From the NCBI GenBank assembly GCA_028711005.1, contig JAQTTC010000002.1:1-52097 (forward strand): a DNA stretch of 52,097 nucleotides. The letters are read 5' to 3'. Below, piece after piece: positions 6,294 through 26,515 of the stretch. Position 1 is the stretch's first letter, and every line of letters starts with the position of its first letter. Source of the DNA: Minisyncoccota bacterium. Its GTDB lineage: Bacteria; Patescibacteriota; Minisyncoccia; UBA6257. A model generated the notes under the pieces. It ran no database searches, was not told where the DNA came from, and worked only from the letters and a program-made list of their open reading frames with translations. A program made the position numbers and the translations under genes.

Positions 6294-7406
6294 TTATAAC
6301 GTATCTTTGGGGTCTATATCAATCCTCCAGTTGTTTCTAAAAGAAATTGATTTTAGAACTTTGTTTCTTAAATTAAGTTCATTTTTAGTTGGTAAAGGAG
6401 AGAGAAGATTGAGACCTAGCAAAGGATCAATATTTTTTTGAATTTTGCTTTCAAAATATTTATATTTTATTAATATATTCCATTTATACACTCCTTTCTC
6501 TTTAAAAGTAAAAGCAGGGGCTGGACCTAAAATATTAAAGTTTTTTTGTAAGTCCTGAGGTACAATTTTTGAAATTGTTTCATCAAGTTTACTTCTCATA
6601 ATTGTTGCCATTTCATTTCCTTTATTTTCATCTGAATGAGAAAAAGTCAGCTTAATTAATTGAACAAAAGGTGGCCAGAGATAACTTTTGCGCCATTTTA
6701 ATTCTTCTTCAAAAAATTTCTTTTCCTGATGCTTAATCAAATATTGAAATACTTTATTTTCAGGAATTAATGTTTGAATAATTAATTTCTCTTTTGCTAT
6801 TCTTCTTAACCTTAAAAGATAAAAAAAGATTTTTTCTTCACTATTATAATCTGGTAGGAAAAGCAGGGGATCAATAGAAGCAACAATTACTAAATCAGCT
6901 TGTTCTAATTGAGGCCTTAATAATGCTTCAGTACCAATTAAAATTTTTATTTCACCTTTATTAAACTTATCAAAAATTTTTAATTCTTCATTATCAGGCA
7001 TTTCCCCTTCTATCAAATTAAGCTGAGGCAGGGGATTAATAAATTTTTTAATTTCCTCACTAATCCTTTCCATACCTATTCCTAAAGGTTTTAATCTATA
7101 TCCATGACAAGAAGGACAAGTGTTAGGCATTGGTATTTGATAGCCACAATGATGGCAAACTAGCTTAGCTGGCAAATGAAACCCTAGGGGAATATCACAA
7201 TAAGGACACTTTGGTACAAACCCACAATCCTGGCAAATAACACTTGTTGCTAGCCCTCTTCGATTTATAAAAATAGCAGCCTTTTTCCCTTCTTTTAAAG
7301 TATCTTGTAACTCATCAAGAGATTCTGGAGACATTGCTTGAAAAGGTCTCTTTTTCTCCTTTTTCTCTTTTGGATTAATAATTTTGATAACAGGTGATAT
7401 CGGCAT
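6294..7406 (-). CDS. priA: primosomal protein N' (PriA), C-terminal part: helicase lobe 2, Cys-rich zinc region, C-terminal domain
   Basis: FINRRGLATSVICQDCGFVPKCPYCDIPLGFH...CHHCGY...CPSCHG is the four-CxxC PriA zinc module. ILIGTEAL corresponds to the lobe-2 block. It lies in a +1 frame relative to the upstream fragment. Confidence 0.8.
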   Translation of the reverse strand: MPISPVIKIINPKEKKEKKRPFQAMSPESLDELQDTLKEGKKAAIFINRRGLATSVICQDCGFVPKCPYCDIPLGFHLPAKLVCHHCGYQIPMPNTCPSCHGYRLKPLGIGMERISEEIKKFINPLPQLNLIEGEMPDNEELKIFDKFNKGEIKILIGTEALLRPQLEQADLVIVASIDPLLFLPDYNSEEKIFFYLLRLRRIAKEKLIIQTLIPENKVFQYLIKHQEKKFFEEELKWRKSYLWPPFVQLIKLTFSHSDENKGNEMATIMRSKLDETISKIVPQDLQKNFNILGPAPAFTFKEKGVYKWNILIKYKYFESKIQKNIDPLLGLNLLSPLPTKNELNLRNKVLKSISFRNNWRIDIDPKDTL

Positions 7407-8223
7407 TATAGTAAAAAGATAAATAATTAGCTAGGGTAATAGAGTTATAATAAGGCTTTTGATCCCATGACTTATATGAAGAATTATTACCATCAATTGC
7501 AATAATTAAGCCTAAATCTTGCCAAGGCAAAAAAAGAGATGAACGTCTCCCTAAAACAACCAGAGATTCTTTAGAATTAACTTTTTGCCATAAAGCATTA
7601 AACTCTTTAACTTTTAAATCAGTTGAGGCAATTAAAATAGGTTCTTCAATCTCTCTCAATAGACGAGAATAATAATATTCCTGATGTAAAACAGTAGGAA
7701 CTAAAATTAATACTTGTTGTTTTTTTATTAAGCAATTCTTTATTTCTTTTAAAAGTAAATTGAAATCATTAGAAAAGTTAAAACTCTTTTGTTTTGTTTG
7801 AAAGTTTTTTAATTCAATAGGGGCTGAGATTTTAAAATATTCTGGAAAATCACTTAATGATAAATTTTCTGTATATTTTATTAAAGATTTAATTCTTGGA
7901 GGTAAAATAGTTTTTAAAGATAAAGAAATAGGAGAAAAATAATAACGAGAAATAAAATCTGCTAAGATAAAAAACAATGGGGGAACAATGGGTTTTGATG
8001 ATAATATCTTATCTATTGGTTTTAAAGAAAAATGCGCTGTTTTTAAAAAAGCTTTTCTTAAAGAAACATTATCAGATTTTAAAACAACTGCTGTAATTTT
8101 TCTTTTATTTAAAGAAACTTCAACTAAAATTCCTCTTTCAAGCTTGTCTTTAGAGAAATAAGAAAAAATTTGTGGTTGACCAATAGGAATATTGGTTAGA
8201 GGAACAACATCAAGAATAAACAT
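7375..8223 (-). CDS. priA: primosomal protein N' (PriA), N-terminal part: 3'-DNA-binding domain and degenerate helicase lobe 1
   Basis: ILDVVPL...GQPQIFSY...GILVEVSLNKRKITAVV is the PriA N-terminal fold. VLILVPTV, VVLGRRSSLFLP and LGLIIAIDGNNSSYK align to PriA lobe-1 blocks. It ends at TAA 7375-7377, 32 nt inside the next ORF. Confidence 0.8.
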   Translation of the reverse strand: MFILDVVPLTNIPIGQPQIFSYFSKDKLERGILVEVSLNKRKITAVVLKSDNVSLRKAFLKTAHFSLKPIDKILSSKPIVPPLFFILADFISRYYFSPISLSLKTILPPRIKSLIKYTENLSLSDFPEYFKISAPIELKNFQTKQKSFNFSNDFNLLLKEIKNCLIKKQQVLILVPTVLHQEYYYSRLLREIEEPILIASTDLKVKEFNALWQKVNSKESLVVLGRRSSLFLPWQDLGLIIAIDGNNSSYKSWDQKPYYNSITLANYLSFYYNADITCYQNY

Positions 8224-12303: not shown

Positions 12304-12678
12304 ATGCCCCACTGTTTAAAAATTTTAACAAAGATTATCTCTTTTGTCAAAAAGCATTTCTGGCTTTACAGTTTTGCTTTTTTAATTACTAGTTTAGCTT
12401 TTTCCTCAGGAATTATCATTGGCGCTAATATTCTATCTCGGCCTCCAATGATTATAGAAAAAGAACTAATACTCAATTTAGAGGAAAGCCTAGCTGAAGT
12501 AGAAGCTAAAAATGAATCTTTAAAAGAATTCTCTTATGTAGCTAGTTCAAGAGGAAAATATTATTATCCAATAGATTGCAGTCTAGCAAAAAACTTAAAA
12601 GAAGAAAACAAGATATATTTTAAAACAAAAGAGGAAGCAGAAGACAAGGGATATATCTATAACACTAAATGTGACTAA
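12304..12678 (+). CDS. hypothetical membrane-anchored protein with C-terminal Ada-like/'sunset'-type small domain
   Basis: One TM helix (LYSFAFLITSLAFSSGIIIGANIL). The C-terminal YYYPIDCSLAKNLKEENKIYFKTKEEAEDKGYIYNTKC follows the Y-x-x-x-C...F-x-(S/T)-x-x-E-A-x-x-x-G-Y...C pattern. Confidence 0.55.
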   Translation: MPHCLKILTKIISFVKKHFWLYSFAFLITSLAFSSGIIIGANILSRPPMIIEKELILNLEESLAEVEAKNESLKEFSYVASSRGKYYYPIDCSLAKNLKEENKIYFKTKEEAEDKGYIYNTKCD

Positions 12679-12680
12679 TC

Positions 12681-13862
12681 TTATTCTAACTCTTCTTCCA
12701 CTTCTTTTTTACTAACATTATTTGAAGAAAGATATTTATATTCTTGTTCTATCTTTTCTGCCTCTTTTATTTTATCTCTTAATTCTTGAGGAATCTCTTT
12801 AAGAACTCTATCAAGTTTTTTAGGATCAATTGCTAATATTCTTTCCCATTTATCCAAAGGCTCTAAAACTTCCTTAAGTTTTTTAATGTTATATGAAACT
12901 TTATTTTTTGTGGTTCTACAAAAATATCCATTTTCTCCAAAAACACGTTTTAAACCTCTTTGATTGCAATAAACATCAATTAAATTTCTTAAACTTTCTA
13001 ATTCTTTTTCTATCCCTTCTCTTTTGTCTTTAAGCTCAAAATATTTATCAATCTTTTGTTTAATATCAAGTTCATTAACATCACTTTTTGATTGACCTTC
13101 ATAAAGATGCCTCCAAATTGGGCAAATATTACGATAACCACACCAACCGCATAGGGCTGAGGACCGAGGCTCAAAATTACTTTTTTCTATCTTATGAATT
13201 AATTGAATAACTTTTTCTTTACTTTCTTCTAGATCCTGTTCTGTTCTTTGAGTTTTAATCTTTTCATTGAATTTAAGAAAATACAAGCTAAGAGTTAATT
13301 TGTCTATCTTAGTTCTAGGCCAACGACTTTTTAATCCAATAGCATAAAAAGATAATTGATCATTCGAATCAACGCTTCTTTGAGAAGCAACACGTTTACC
13401 TGTTTTATAATCTATAATTTCAATTGTTCCGTCTGGTAATTTATCTATTCTATCAATAATTCCAGTCAAAATATGTTTACCATTTTGCTTGCCAGGATTC
13501 TCGTCAATAGTAACTTCAAATCTAGTTTCTAAATCAAGAATTGAGGTTTGGTGAGGAATATTTGCTTTATAATATTCTTCTAAAATTCTCATTCCTTCTT
13601 TGAAATAAGAATGTTCTTCTTCAGAATCTTGCCATTCAAATCCTTCAGATTTTTTAGGCCAATGTTCTTTATAATAATCAAGCAAGGCATCCAGAGTAGG
13701 GAAGTAAGGGTCTTTCTGATAAAACCATTTTAAAACTTTATGAATATAGGTACCAAAAACAGCCTCCTTACTTTTAGGCTCTTTTATTTTATCTATTTGT
13801 GAAAATTTATATTTTAGAGGACACTGTTTAAAATTTTCTAAACTGGAATAACTTATTCTCAT
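12681..13862 (-). CDS. PD-(D/E)XK nuclease, RecB/Cas4-like, with four-Cys (Fe-S type) signature
   Basis: N-terminal SLENFKQCPLKYKF. Nuclease core GIIDRIDKLPDGTIEIIDYKTGK (D...ExK-type). C-terminal CGWCGYRNIC, which with Cys14 gives the C...CxxCx5C pattern of Cas4/AddB nucleases. A roughly 130-aa Lys/Glu-rich helical tail follows. Confidence 0.85.
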   Translation of the reverse strand: MRISYSSLENFKQCPLKYKFSQIDKIKEPKSKEAVFGTYIHKVLKWFYQKDPYFPTLDALLDYYKEHWPKKSEGFEWQDSEEEHSYFKEGMRILEEYYKANIPHQTSILDLETRFEVTIDENPGKQNGKHILTGIIDRIDKLPDGTIEIIDYKTGKRVASQRSVDSNDQLSFYAIGLKSRWPRTKIDKLTLSLYFLKFNEKIKTQRTEQDLEESKEKVIQLIHKIEKSNFEPRSSALCGWCGYRNICPIWRHLYEGQSKSDVNELDIKQKIDKYFELKDKREGIEKELESLRNLIDVYCNQRGLKRVFGENGYFCRTTKNKVSYNIKKLKEVLEPLDKWERILAIDPKKLDRVLKEIPQELRDKIKEAEKIEQEYKYLSSNNVSKKEVEEELE

Positions 13863-13917
13863 AAATAATTAACAAAAATATGTTTCATTTTATCATGTAT
13901 TTAATATATTTTCTATA

Positions 13918-13946
13918 TTGACAGTTATTATAATTATTGATATAAT
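13918..13946 (+). promoter_or_regulatory. near-perfect consensus sigma-70 promoter of the small-gene cassette
   Basis: TTGACA (13918-13923), exactly 17 nt, TGA-TATAAT (extended -10; TATAAT at 13941-13946). Confidence 0.7.
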
Positions 13947-14000
13947 AAGGATATTTGTAACTTGAAAACCGAATAAAAAATAAAGAAAGGGGGATTAAGA

Positions 14001-14228
14001 ATGAATTATCAGATGGAATTGTTTGAAAGAATACCTAAGATTAAAAGAAATAAAAAGGATAAGAAAAAAAAGAAATATTTTCTTGTAACAATAGTAGAAG
14101 ATGATGGTAATGAAATTAAAACTGGAAGATGGGCGTATTCAGAAAACCAAGCAAAAAGGAATATAGCCAAAGATTATAACAAGAAAAAAGGATTTGTAGA
14201 AGATCACTACATTCAGTTTAAATTATGA
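14001..14228 (+). CDS. hypothetical 75-aa Lys-rich protein (cassette gene 1)
   Basis: AAGGGGG SD 7 nt before the ATG and a TGA stop. The N-terminus MNYQMELF precedes a KRNKKDKKKKK tract. No family recognised. Confidence 0.7.
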   Translation: MNYQMELFERIPKIKRNKKDKKKKKYFLVTIVEDDGNEIKTGRWAYSENQAKRNIAKDYNKKKGFVEDHYIQFKL

Positions 14229-14243
14229 AAAAGGAGGTAGGTG

Positions 14244-14495
14244 ATGCAACAACTAAATTTCTTTAGTCCAAAAAAAGGAAGCTATGTAGATATAACTGAT
14301 GGAAAAGAAAAACCATATAGAATCTGGCTATCAAAAAATAAAAAATTCTCTTTGAGCGAGGCAATACAAGAAGCTTTAAAAGTTTACAACAAAGAAAAAG
14401 GGATTAATTTAACTAAAGATAATAATCTTGTAGGATTTGGAGAAATTGTATTAAATGGAAAAATATTTAGAAAGAAGAAAAAGGAGGTAAGATAG
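14244..14495 (+). CDS. hypothetical 83-aa Lys-rich protein (cassette gene 2)
   Basis: AAGGAGG (14231-14237) lies 6 nt before the ATG at 14244; the track uses the GTG at 14241. N-terminus MQQLNFF. No family recognised. Confidence 0.7.
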   Translation: MQQLNFFSPKKGSYVDITDGKEKPYRIWLSKNKKFSLSEAIQEALKVYNKEKGINLTKDNNLVGFGEIVLNGKIFRKKKKEVR

Positions 14496-14496
14496 A

Positions 14497-14748
14497 TTGA
14501 AAGGAACATTCAACGGATGGTTTGATTTAAAAACCGGAGAAATCAATATTCATGTTTGCTATTCTCGTAATAAAGAAAGTTTAAAACTGATACAAGAAAT
14601 GAAAAAAGATTTTAGAAAATGGTGGAAGAAATTTGCTAAAAAAAATCCGGTAGAAAATATACAAGAAAAAAACTGTTCTTTTAAAGATTGTGAAATTTAT
14701 ATAAAGAAAAGAAAAAAATCAATTGACAACAAAGGATATAATGAGTAA
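14497..14748 (+). CDS. hypothetical 83-aa basic protein (cassette gene 3), TTG start
   Basis: AAGGAGG (14481-14487) lies 9 nt before the TTG at 14497, which is 1 nt after the previous stop. Sequence is Trp/Lys-rich (FRKWWKKFAKK). No family recognised. Confidence 0.62.
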   Translation: MKGTFNGWFDLKTGEINIHVCYSRNKESLKLIQEMKKDFRKWWKKFAKKNPVENIQEKNCSFKDCEIYIKKRKKSIDNKGYNE

Positions 14749-14755
14749 ATATATA

Positions 14756-14780
14756 GCGGCAGGAGATTGACTTCTGCCGC
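14756..14780 (+). terminator. GC-rich hairpin after cassette gene 3 (leaky terminator or RNA-stability/processing element)
   Basis: GCGGCAG (14756-14762) pairs with CTGCCGC (14774-14780) around an 11-nt loop. It is followed by AAAATTTT rather than a clean T-run, and the next SD starts 11 nt later. Confidence 0.4.
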
Positions 14781-14806
14781 AAAATTTTAGAAGGAGGGGT
14801 TAAAAA

Positions 14807-14971
14807 ATGATTTCCATTGGTATATCTCTTGTAATTATGGGAATTTTATTCACATGTTTTCTAAATATAGTATGGGAAAATATTGCTAACACTGAAAAAA
14901 TGAGCCCAATAATAGCCTTGGCCATAACCTTTCTTTTCTTGCTCCCAGGATTAATAATTATAAAATTATAA
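14807..14971 (+). CDS. 54-aa two-TM membrane protein (MISIGISLVIMGILFTCFLNIVWENIANTEKMSPIIALAITFLFLLPGLIIIKL), not in supplied track
   Basis: AAGGAGG (14791-14797) lies 9 nt before the ATG. There are two hydrophobic helices separated by WENIANTEKM. An intrinsic terminator begins 13 nt after the TAA. The track instead lists the antisense ORF 14800..14982, which has no SD. Confidence 0.62.
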   Translation: MISIGISLVIMGILFTCFLNIVWENIANTEKMSPIIALAITFLFLLPGLIIIKL

Positions 14972-14983
14972 TTCATTATCATT

Positions 14984-15015
14984 ACCGGTGAGGATTATTC
15001 CTAACCGGTTTTTTA
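14984..15015 (+). terminator. intrinsic terminator closing the small-gene cassette
   Basis: accggtgagga (14984-14994) pairs with tcctaaccggt (14999-15009), 10 of 11 bp, around a 4-nt loop. It is followed by TTTTT (15010-15014). Confidence 0.65.
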
Positions 15016-15025
15016 TTATAAAATT

Positions 15026-15976
15026 TTATCTTCCTCCTCCATGAAATTTTTGATGAATTTCCCGGAGTTTTTTGTTAGTAACATGAGCATAAATTTGAGT
15101 AGCAGCAATGTTTTTATGACCCAAAAACTCTTGAAGAATTCTTATATCTACTCCTTGAGCTAGAAGATCAGTGCTAAAAGAATGCCTCATAACATGGGGA
15201 GTAGTATTTAAAGGTAATCCAGCCATCACAACATATTTCTTCATTGATTTTTCAATAGAACGATTAGTTAATCTTCTGGATGCATTTTTCTTACTCCGAT
15301 AGTTTATGAACAGAGCCTTGTCATCATCTTTTCGAGTTTCTAAATACTTACTTAACCAATGGAGAGCTCTTTCTGAAAAATATACCGTTCTCATTCTATT
15401 TCCTTTACCAATAATGCTTAATTCTAGTTCCTCTTTGCTATTTGGTTTAATTTTAATTTGATTACGATCAAGAGCCGTGAGCTCTGAGATACGCATTCCA
15501 GTAGAAAAAAGTATTTCTAAGATAGCTCTATCGCGCAATCCTTGTATTTTTGAAACATCAGGTGCTTTAAATAATTTTTCTAATTGTTCTAACACTAAAA
15601 AGCGAACCTGTTTATCACCTTTATCTCTAGCTAATTGTATTTTCTCTGTTGGTAAAGATAAAATATCCTTATCAGCGAAATAATTCAAAAGGGACCTTAA
15701 GGCGATTAAATAATAATTCTGTGTAGTTTTCTTCAAAGGTTGACCAGAATGATTAACACATTGGCGAGATAAAAAAACTCTATAATTCCAAACATGATCA
15801 GAGGACAATTCATGAGGTTTTAGATTACTTAATTTATTCTTTTCTAGCCAATCTAAAAACCTCTTTAAAAACCTAGCGTAGTTTTCTTGAGATTTTGAAG
15901 ATAATCCTTTTTGAATTTCTAACCAATCCAAAAAATCGTTTAAATAGGAGGGGATTGATCTATTGCTTTTTTCCAT
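15026..15976 (-). CDS. tyrosine site-specific recombinase (XerC/XerD-like)
   Basis: N-terminal SAM-like core-binding domain (YLNDFLDWLEIQKGLSSKSQENYARFLKRF). Catalytic region GMRISEL ... HVMRHSFSTDLLAQGVDIRILQEFLGHKNIAATQIYAHV supplies the R, HxxR, H and Y residues. Confidence 0.9.
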   Translation of the reverse strand: MEKSNRSIPSYLNDFLDWLEIQKGLSSKSQENYARFLKRFLDWLEKNKLSNLKPHELSSDHVWNYRVFLSRQCVNHSGQPLKKTTQNYYLIALRSLLNYFADKDILSLPTEKIQLARDKGDKQVRFLVLEQLEKLFKAPDVSKIQGLRDRAILEILFSTGMRISELTALDRNQIKIKPNSKEELELSIIGKGNRMRTVYFSERALHWLSKYLETRKDDDKALFINYRSKKNASRRLTNRSIEKSMKKYVVMAGLPLNTTPHVMRHSFSTDLLAQGVDIRILQEFLGHKNIAATQIYAHVTNKKLREIHQKFHGGGR

Positions 15977-16086
15977 GATGATAAGAGACTCTTAACTTAA
16001 ATTATGCGAACTATAATATACTTTATTTTAACGCATTAAAATGCGTTGTCAATACTTCTCCCCAAAAACTAGGTTAACTTTATTAC

Positions 16087-16284
16087 TTAGCTTATAAGAA
16101 ACTTTAAAATCCTTATTAATGTTTCTAGCCCAATAATTATAAATTCAACCATTAATTTTAAAAAAGCTGTTACATGAAATATAATCTTTGATATGAAACC
16201 TGCAATAAGAGTTTCATTAACAAAATAGCTTATATCTTCCAAAATTTTTAAAATAAATTGTGATAATTGATCAAAATTATCCAT
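16087..16284 (-). CDS. hypothetical 65-aa hydrophobic protein, translationally coupled to gltX
   Basis: The ATG overlaps the gltX TAA as TAATG (16282-16286). The C-terminal half is hydrophobic (IIFHVTAFLKLMVEFIIIGLETLI). No family recognised. Confidence 0.5.
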   Translation of the reverse strand: MDNFDQLSQFILKILEDISYFVNETLIAGFISKIIFHVTAFLKLMVEFIIIGLETLIRILKFLIS

Positions 16285-26426: not shown

Positions 26427-26486
26427 TTTTCTTACCTCCTTAAACTATAAAAATTTTCAAGTTGCAACTGATTTTTAATTTAAAAA

Positions 26487-26515
26487 ATAATACCACTAAT
26501 AACTTTTTTAGTCAA
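26487..26515 (-). promoter_or_regulatory. candidate sigma-70 promoter of the pyrE/small-protein operon
   Basis: On the minus strand: TTGACT (26510-26515), a 17-nt spacer, TGG-TATTAT (TATTAT at 26487-26492). It lies just downstream of the rpsI terminator. Confidence 0.55.

Follow-up and report, generated by a model that had tools for sequence, protein, structure and literature searches.

Organization of the locus

The sequence analysed here is a 52,097-nucleotide stretch from a Minisyncoccota bacterium (contig JAQTTC010000002.1 of assembly GCA_028711005.1), referred to below as the window. Exact protein matches link it to metagenome-assembled genomes of Candidatus Paceibacterota. It contains an operon of four small open reading frames (ORFs), designated o1 to o4 from 5' to 3', which is divergent from a PD-(D/E)XK nuclease gene (nuc) and convergent with a gene for a tyrosine recombinase of the XerC/XerD type (xer). 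The nuc-xer interval is called the slot, and three-digit L-numbers designate the loci of relatives. An earlier reading of this DNA, the original prediction, had described these elements and proposed that they form a phage- or plasmid-derived module. We find instead that they very probably constitute a chromosomally fixed small-protein operon, kept by a clade of Paceibacteria between a RecB/Cas4-like nuclease and xer. The features of the locus are listed in Table 1.

The slot promoter lies where it had been predicted and matches the sigma-70 consensus, TG extension included, at 12 of 12 positions. It is the only perfect TTGACA-N14-TGnTATAAT sequence in the 52 kb, in which six sites with at most two mismatches were observed against 1.17 expected. 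When the promoter and leader regions of 10 relatives were examined (alignment A3), the hexamers and the TG were invariant in 8 of the 10 whatever the cargo behind them, and the invariant promoter and leader are present both in L016, where the cargo is a DUF218 gene, and in L015, which has four ORFs and no o1, o3 or o4. The leader element, which follows the slot promoter of the relatives with the consensus TTGyAAyTTGAAAAy, is also found, as TTG(C/T)AACTTGAAAA(T/C), behind the -10 hexamer of the pyrE promoter (element at 26453-26467 and promoter at 26487-26515, both on the minus strand), and the idea of a slot-specific regulator was dropped for that reason. Its genome-wide enrichment was not significant (3 matches against 2.3 expected), and it is perhaps a feature of 5' leaders or of regulation in the organism generally.

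All four predicted ORFs were recovered in place, with the start codon of o3 a single nucleotide past the o2 stop. A Shine-Dalgarno sequence stands 6-9 nt upstream of each of them, as had been proposed: GGAGG at 6 nt from the ATG of o2 and at 9 nt from the TTG of o3, GGAGGGG at 7-9 nt from the ATG of o4, and AAAGGGGGA at 7 nt from the ATG of o1. The last of these is G-rich and does not belong to the AGGAGG class that had been claimed for every ORF. An alternative GTG start for o2 is found 3 nt upstream, at 14241; the ATG is better spaced, and public gene calls give the 83-amino acid form. The products of o1 to o3 are indeed small, basic and rich in lysine (19-22% of residues, compared with about 10% in the window proteome; isoelectric points 9.65-9.95).

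Both predicted hairpins fold, each with a z-score of about -4.2. The internal one, between o3 and o4 (dG -18.5 kcal/mol), is followed by AAAAUUUU with no U-run and falls outside the definition of a Rho-independent terminator. The one that closes the operon (stem and loop 14984-15009, dG -14.9 kcal/mol) falls within it and lies just before the convergent xer stop codon, and an equivalent GC hairpin with a T-run ends the slot of every relative at this same point. A simple terminator scan missed both hairpins, presumably because the first has no T-run and the stem of the second contains a mismatch. Judged by eye, the internal hairpin resembles the terminal terminator hairpin of L021, L016 and L091, which are relatives without o4, and also the hairpin inside the L118 slot ahead of a gene for a membrane protein. 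It is probably a partial terminator, if not a hairpin that stabilises the RNA or takes part in its processing, and would lower the expression of o4 relative to o1-o3, this role being a guess. A search of the whole window at Rfam gathering thresholds returned a tRNA-Lys only, and a permissive scan of the operon gave sub-threshold noise.

The original prediction had also held that the 54-amino acid ORF with two hydrophobic segments is a real gene in preference to the antisense ORF, and this is borne out. The sense ORF is intact at 54 amino acids in three other species (L011, L103 and L107), the antisense ORF gains a stop codon in two, and gene calls for o4 exist in the ENA, JGI and Logan assemblies but not in the NCBI annotation. 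Nonsynonymous and synonymous divergence (dN, dS and their ratio, omega) were compared between the window and L011, in which xer is 95% and nuc 90% identical; a strain-level comparison was uninformative, since the contigs had been picked by an exact o1 match and hence held no variation in the cassette. The values are 0.21 for omega and 0.74 for dS in o4, and 0.45 and 0.49 in o3, while those of the flanking genes are 0.04-0.22 and 0.52-0.86. The third and fourth ORFs are orthologous genes under purifying selection. For o1, omega is 0.26 and dS is 1.8, about three times that of the flanks.

Table 1. Features of the nuc-xer slot and its borders in the window
Feature	Position	Strand	Description
Nuclease (nuc)	12681-13862	-	PD-(D/E)XK nuclease with Cas4/AddB-type four-Cys pattern; divergent from operon; left slot border
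Nuclease promoter-like site	13887-13915	-	TAGAAA-17-TGnTAAAAT; 9/12 match, TG present
Slot promoter	13918-13946	+	TTGACA-N14-TGATATAAT; consensus sigma-70 (TTGACA-17-TATAAT with TG extension)
5' leader element	13955-13969	+	TTGTAACTTGAAAAC; two or three TTGnAAy direct repeats; conserved in A3
o1	14001-14228	+	75 amino acids; Group A member of o1 family; N-terminal QMELF, Lys-rich disordered linker, beta-hairpin and helix core
o2	14244-14495	+	83 amino acids from ATG; diverged o1 paralog; N-terminal QLNFF
o3	14497-14748	+	83 amino acids; TTG start
Internal hairpin	14756-14780	+	GC-rich
o4	14807-14971	+	54 amino acids; small membrane protein with two transmembrane segments (by hydropathy)
Intrinsic terminator	14984-15015	+	Hairpin followed by T-run
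Recombinase (xer)	15026-15976	-	XerC/XerD-like tyrosine recombinase; convergent; right slot border
Inverted repeat upstream of xer	15986-16011		(G/C)TTCGCwTAA-N6-TTATGCGAA(C/G); left arm degenerate in window
Candidate clamp-binding motif peptides			MNYQMELFERIPK and MQQLNFFSPKKG, from o1/o2

A conserved frame with exchanged cargo

Relatives were collected by a nuclease scan of 185,579 species-representative genomes, which gave a series of graded identity from 90% down to 53%. In every one of them the nuc-xer interval is occupied, by 762-2649 bp, and its surroundings are conserved. On the left lie murC, ctpB, the L9 gene, the L27 gene, a gene for a 124-amino acid membrane protein and the nuclease, which is syntenic with the L27 and L9 genes and 53-92% identical in all relatives; on the right, xer is syntenic throughout with genes for a 65-amino acid hydrophobic protein, gltX, murG and ftsW. 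A gene of the o1 family is present, in the same order, in 29 of the 31 loci of our slot census (several of which are near-duplicates), and every o1-family member of the clade whose position was checked is found in the slot, with its orientation unchanged. The 64 distant nuclease homologs, from other classes of the candidate phyla radiation (CPR) and from other phyla, are without the neighbours seen in the window, two having a weak xer-like match several kilobases away, which makes the arrangement specific to one Paceibacteria clade.

Since the flanks, promoter, leader, terminator and o1 gene are kept clade-wide, the segment at 13.9-15.0 kb is not an insertion between nuclease and recombinase, a possibility that the original prediction had raised for a synteny check. 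It had further proposed that an order universally conserved among relatives would mark the operon as core and not accessory; this is what we see for the frame, the flanks and the o1 gene, and not for the companions o2, o3 and o4, which are gained, lost or swapped between relatives. The protein families that recur in the census are the o1 type (with QxxLF), the o2 type, a core-only form of the o1 family, the o3 type (with a GGYNE tail), a 'W-EIGK' type, an acidic coiled-coil protein, a basic helical protein, o4-type proteins with two transmembrane segments, a larger transmembrane protein, a 260-amino acid protein and DUF218. Within the o1 family, Group A members (defined below) often co-occur with an o3-type partner, and many slots have the family without o3.

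The exchange is most clearly seen in L107, which shares 92-93% identity with the window at 13875-14028 and 14476-15554 and whose o3 protein is 96% identical. Between these segments L107 replaces the 447 bp at 14029-14475 of the window, comprising the rest of o1 together with o2, with 195 bp that form one canonical o1 gene, 80% identical at the DNA level to that of L011, from which o2 is absent. The breakpoints are sharp and lie inside conserved sequence. These comparisons show that the window species has an o1+o2 allele where its closest relatives have a single canonical o1 gene, and that cargo is exchanged by recombination within a conserved frame consisting of promoter, leader, strong Shine-Dalgarno sequence and terminal terminator. 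An ortholog of o2 (P0078, 66% identity) occupies the second position in the slot of another species (L117/L118), which argues against a recent duplication and for o1+o2 as an alternative allele of some age.

In its conserved flanks, varying cargo and sharp breakpoints the slot resembles the variable hotspots flanked by core genes, islets that are exchanged through homologous recombination in their conserved flanks. It differs from them in that the promoter, leader and terminator are part of the frame, the o1 family is nearly always retained, and the cargo consists of lineage-specific mini-proteins and not of known defence or mobile genes. The locus may be regarded as an example of a conserved 'expression slot', with a fixed promoter, leader and terminator and a mini-protein cargo that is swapped between near-identical genomes, and its alleles should be a useful marker of strain-level recombination in uncultured episymbionts.

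The o1 family and its N-terminal motif

A search with o1 as a single sequence returned its own cluster only, and alignment-based searches reached further: 14 clusters were found in a word-indexed search of 5.8 billion proteins, and 33 representative clusters in an exhaustive HMMER search of 1.84 billion representatives. The profile of alignment A1 was too diverse for a pattern-based viral scan. No match to the family was found in Pfam (all 40 members scanned), NCBIfam, PHROG, PADLOC or PDB sequences, and fold searches with o1 against PDB and BFVD gave nothing at E <= 0.001; the best BFVD match had an E of 0.055, and weak, non-significant likenesses were seen to two kinds of beta-beta-alpha-beta protein, small ribosomal proteins and a phage inhibitor of RNA polymerase. 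The o2 protein matches o1 with a pairwise E of 8e-4 and the family profile with 9.6e-10, and the two are aligned together in A1 and A8. In the AlphaFold2 (AF2) model of o1, which is of moderate confidence (predicted local distance difference test, pLDDT, 66.6), the core, at about 80, consists of two strands and a helix. The C-terminal end is of low confidence, and the alignment suggests a further strand there. Taken together, these data show that o1 and o2 are paralogs sharing a domain of about 55 amino acids that has not been described before and is made up of a beta-hairpin, a helix and a strand.

The family splits in two. Group B consists of the core alone and includes members in genomes of 46-53% guanine plus cytosine (GC), where the gene stands by itself among ordinary chromosomal neighbours; one member from another lineage adjoins a DNA glycosylase gene, and the core also stands alone in L094, L113 and L116. 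Group A, which includes o1, is confined to the nuc-xer slot clade and has an N-terminal extension in which the sequence Q-[LIM]-x-[LF]-F is found and, in many members, [DES]-[ILV]-P-E and a basic, Lys-rich linker come after it. The pentapeptide is found within the first 16 residues of 15 of 16 Group A proteins and of none of the 24 Group B proteins, its chance occurrence from composition being about 7e-4 per protein N-terminus, and among the proteins of the window it is N-terminal only in o1 (QMELF) and o2 (QLNFF, with F at position 4). In the o1 model the extension has no secondary structure before residue 25; residues 1-10 have a pLDDT below 50, and the block means remain low through residue 20 (44 and 53). 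These comparisons show that an N-terminal extension, disordered and bearing Q-[LIM]-x-[LF]-F and then a Lys-rich linker, was gained in the slot clade.

The codon for the motif glutamine is CAA in eight genes and CAG in seven, the leucine positions use TTA, TTG and CTA, and the motif is retained where the Group A gene is second in the operon. Such synonymous variation, together with the presence of the motif in second genes, indicates that it is conserved as protein and not as a translation-initiation or recombination sequence. The consensus for bacterial beta-clamp binding is QL[S/D]LF or QxxLF, its critical positions being 1, 4 and 5 (PMC12309361; PMC4549789). The Group A motif matches this consensus at all three critical positions. 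The o1 and o3 families are new; their likeness to clamp-binding proteins is confined to the motif of o1 and o2, and the carrier domain is undescribed.

The o3 family

The o3 family is small, with seven clusters only. In the AF2 model of o3, again of moderate confidence (pLDDT 61.5), a beta-hairpin leads into a long helix and a strand, and the C-terminal tail, which is disordered, ends in a conserved GGYNE, of which G-Y-N-E is invariant in alignment A6. The tail codons vary between species (AAT/AAC, GAG/GAA and GGA/GGC). No match of the tail to any known docking motif was assigned, and a fold search with o3 against PDB gave no match at E <= 0.001. The possibility that o1 and o3 form one superfamily was considered and abandoned, as hhalign found nothing between them. 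A comparison of the o3-type and W-EIGK-type profiles gave a probability of 7%. An o3-type gene that is intact in L118 (3486-3797, 103 amino acids) is split into ORFs of 59 and 49 amino acids in the near-identical L117 (5602-5917), indicating a frameshift and the dispensability of an o3-type component.

Possible functions of the operon

The reading that we tentatively favour, and put a little short of an even chance when taken as a whole, is that of a fixed operon, highly expressed to judge from its promoter, that produces small basic proteins tethered to the sliding clamp. The N-terminal extension of o1 and o2 would be a beta-sliding-clamp-binding motif that docks on DnaN, and the Lys-rich linker and basic mini-domain would then sit on or near DNA. 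Being abundant, o1 and o2 could compete with, or modulate, other clients of the clamp, such as replication and repair factors. As a guess, o3 might be a soluble partner acting through its GGYNE tail, and o4 might be made at a lower level, the internal hairpin attenuating read-through. The step on which this proposal depends, binding of the o1/o2 tail to DnaN, is predicted from sequence and, taken by itself, is possible but on the doubtful side.

The likeness to known proteins with beta-clamp-binding motifs lies in the pentapeptide itself (Q first, an aliphatic residue second, L or F fourth and F last), in its position in a terminal disordered segment, and in its being kept while its surroundings diverge. 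The carriers here differ from those proteins in their size of 75-85 amino acids, in their mini-domain, which is undescribed, and in lacking any enzymatic domain; their motif stands at the very N-terminus, ahead of a Lys-rich linker, and its binding is a prediction. Several points weigh against our proposal. QxxLF is a short sequence that might bind another partner or serve as a degron, and the AF2 models, at 66.6 for o1 and 61.5 for o3, are moderately confident. Among characterised clamp-binding motifs an N-terminal position, as in Hda, is rarer than the C-terminal or internal one that most of them have. Finally, the motif or even the entire family is missing from Group B and from the slots L015 and L016, and the function is hence dispensable.

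It is conceivable, though unlikely, that o1 and o2 represent a new class of very small, highly expressed clamp-binding proteins, peculiar to a clade of Paceibacteria and made of a mini-domain with an N-terminal clamp-binding tail, that tune or block replication and repair, and that their allelic turnover within the fixed slot reflects an ongoing conflict, between strains or with clamp-targeting phages. Small inhibitors that target the clamp include the Caulobacter toxin SocB and staphylococcal phage proteins that bind DnaN. Like these, o1 and o2 are small, belong to variable loci and are proposed to act via the peptide-binding cleft of the clamp. They have no sequence or fold relation to them, however, and they are encoded in a clade-wide fixed operon with a constitutive-looking promoter and no identifiable antidote or protease adaptor. 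The genomes of CPR bacteria (Patescibacteria) are tiny and have many unannotated small ORFs, and the regulation of replication and repair in them is barely known; for one orphan family, o1, the clamp reading predicts that a peptide of about 10 residues binds DnaN.

The same anatomy could be explained if o1 and o2 were abundant nucleic-acid-binding or regulatory proteins whose QxxLF tail binds a partner other than the clamp or is a degron, which we consider somewhat improbable. Such a partner might be the adjacent nuclease, RNA polymerase, the ribosome or a protease adaptor. The basic, Lys-rich character of o1-o3 would suit such a role, as would the strong promoter and Shine-Dalgarno sequences, the conserved arrangement divergent from the nuclease, the Group B member beside a DNA glycosylase gene and the faint resemblance in fold to small ribosomal proteins and a phage RNA-polymerase inhibitor. 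None of the fold matches reaches significance, however; the distant homologs of the nuclease have no such neighbour, and the motif fits the clamp consensus at each of its critical positions.

It is quite improbable that the operon is a chromosomal addiction or competition module, in which o1 and o2 would be clamp-binding inhibitors of replication in the manner of SocB or of the clamp inhibitors of phages, neutralised by o3 or another partner, and the turnover of alleles would be a sign of conflict. The clamp-type motif, the frequent co-occurrence of Group A o1 with o3-type genes, the 1-nt spacing of o2 and o3, and the allelic replacement and deep divergence of o1 all agree with such a module. 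Yet o1 and o3 are both basic and the window offers no acidic, antitoxin-like partner; the promoter has the constitutive consensus form and no evident operator; many slots have the o1 family without o3, and the family also occurs alone; and no known toxin-antitoxin or defence domains were found with Pfam and PADLOC.

We regard as improbable, to a slightly greater degree, the phage- or plasmid-derived accessory module of the original prediction, in which a toxin/immunity, defence/counter-defence or holin-like unit would lie between a nuclease and a recombinase. What stands of that prediction is a strongly promoted operon of lineage-restricted small proteins, outside core metabolism and variable in content between relatives. 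The variation between species, the swapping of alleles between near-identical backgrounds, the relaxed constraint (omega up to 0.45-0.51), the small membrane protein at the 3' end and the likeness of the nuclease to phage exonucleases would all fit a mobile origin. However, the o1 and o3 families have no relative in IMG/VR or PHROGs, and a tblastn search of GenBank phages gave none for o1 and a best E of 0.5 for o3, a plasmid collection not being among the sets searched. The GC content is about 29% throughout the window, with no compositional island, and the clade has inherited the slot with its promoter and the o1 family from its ancestor, none of them being found elsewhere within it. The neighbours that had been taken as evidence of a mobile element are syntenic core genes, the recombinase being XerC/XerD-like and the nuclease being found with the L27 and L9 genes. 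A dif-like sequence is found only beyond xer as seen from the operon, and no flanking repeats or att sites were seen around the cassette by eye (no repeat-finding program was run).

The particular functions that had been suggested for such a module fare no better. A holin role for o4 is not supported: its C-terminus ends PGLIIIKL with a single Lys and has no charged tail, and it has no lysin gene beside it, its neighbours being o3 and xer and the nearest amidase gene lying about 10 kb away. No positive evidence of a toxin/immunity pair was found, and the core of the o1 family is also a stand-alone gene elsewhere, as in the three loci named above. As for defence or counter-defence, o1-o4 match 0 families in PADLOC and none in Pfam or NCBIfam. 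A combination of nuclease, integrase and small ORFs is a tempting basis for annotation as a mobile element; here it is the core neighbourhood of xer.

That the small ORFs are partly or wholly non-genes, the promoter driving a non-coding RNA, is hardly credible: NCBI omits o4 and the leader is conserved at the DNA level, but o3 and o4 have an omega below 1 with normal dS, the motif is conserved with synonymous codon variation, every ORF has a Shine-Dalgarno sequence, the families are recovered by protein profiles and there is no Rfam match.

Flanking genes and the repeat upstream of xer

Both borders of the slot belong to the families that had been predicted. The nuclease matches Pfam PDDEXK_1 (E 1.4e-39) and the exonuclease family PHROG 69 (5e-40), and its Cys...CxxCx5C pattern, read from the translation, is formed by C14 and CGWCGYRNIC. 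Its match to the Cas4 model TIGR00372 (E 4.5e-12, 46.2 bits) is below the cut-off of 65, and no cas genes are found among its neighbours. The putative promoter of the nuclease has a -10 block, TTTTATCAT, that is kept in relatives as read from their sequences. Residues 255-393 of the nuclease form a clade-specific C-terminal coiled-coil extension, which matches DUF7376 (2.2e-06, 28.1 bits against a cut-off of 27) and, more weakly, a Mu Gam/Sipho_Gp157-like domain of TOTE conflict systems (E 1.8e-4); the alignment with distant homologs is limited to residues 3-250. Upstream, the 124-amino acid protein (12304-12678, plus strand) is conserved in the clade, belongs to no assigned family and has an N-terminal transmembrane segment and a C-terminal Cys-containing domain that is weakly Ada_Zn_binding-like (E 0.011).

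The recombinase matches Pfam Phage_integrase (2.6e-39) and has an N-terminal SAM-like domain (SAM_1). Its best NCBIfam models are XerC (1.4e-62) and XerD (2.2e-62), and as its score of about 212 bits is under their equivalog cut-offs of 330-335, it is called Xer-like. In the strains L006 (11026-11292) and L008 (11020-11210), the last 190-270 nt of xer are 90-93% identical to the window and the cassette is 100% identical; the contigs end there, and the divergence suggests a recombination mosaic or strain heterogeneity at the slot border. The 65-amino acid hydrophobic protein between gltX and xer (16087-16284, minus strand) is conserved in the clade and has no family assignment.

Directly upstream of xer, and outside the operon, lies an inverted repeat that is conserved in the 10 loci compared and whose arms covary (GTTCGC/GCGAAC and CTTCGC/GCGAAG). 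The sole TTATGCGAAC of the window is found within it, and its arm TTCGCATAA resembles the XerC arm of dif. The repeat is a candidate dif site, xer operator or hairpin of the 5' untranslated region. A second covarying palindrome (16030-16047) lies inside the spacer of the xer promoter (TTGACA-16-TAAAAT, 16025-16052). Single-recombinase Xer systems in which dif lies next to the xer gene are represented by XerS/difSL and XerH/difH. The present locus resembles these in having an Xer-like recombinase with a conserved, imperfect inverted repeat directly upstream. It differs in that the repeat is on the side of xer away from the operon, no second copy flanks the cassette, skew shows no terminus, and the repeat could equally be an operator or a leader hairpin.

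A replication terminus at the locus, with the cassette as an integrative mobile element exploiting Xer (IMEX) at dif, was considered, as GC skew in the window hinted at a switch near 12-15 kb. Skew calculated per gene at third codon positions (GC3 skew) is negative on both sides, however, and has no change of sign at the locus; as the only dif-like repeat is upstream of xer and not around the cassette, the IMEX explanation was dropped. From 15000 to 52000 nearly all genes lie on the minus strand, with a strongly negative GC3 skew (-0.2 to -0.7) that does not depend on gene orientation; to the left of 12 kb it is weaker and keeps its sign. The locus marks a change in skew magnitude and in gene orientation but no demonstrable terminus.

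Elsewhere in the window, priA is present as two overlapping ORFs on the minus strand (6294-7406 and 7375-8223), one of them a 282-amino acid part with the 3'-DNA-binding domain and the other a 370-amino acid part with the Zn-ribbon and C-terminal region. The same split is seen in strains and in the distant relative L094, indicating a conserved split or frameshifted gene and not an assembly error.

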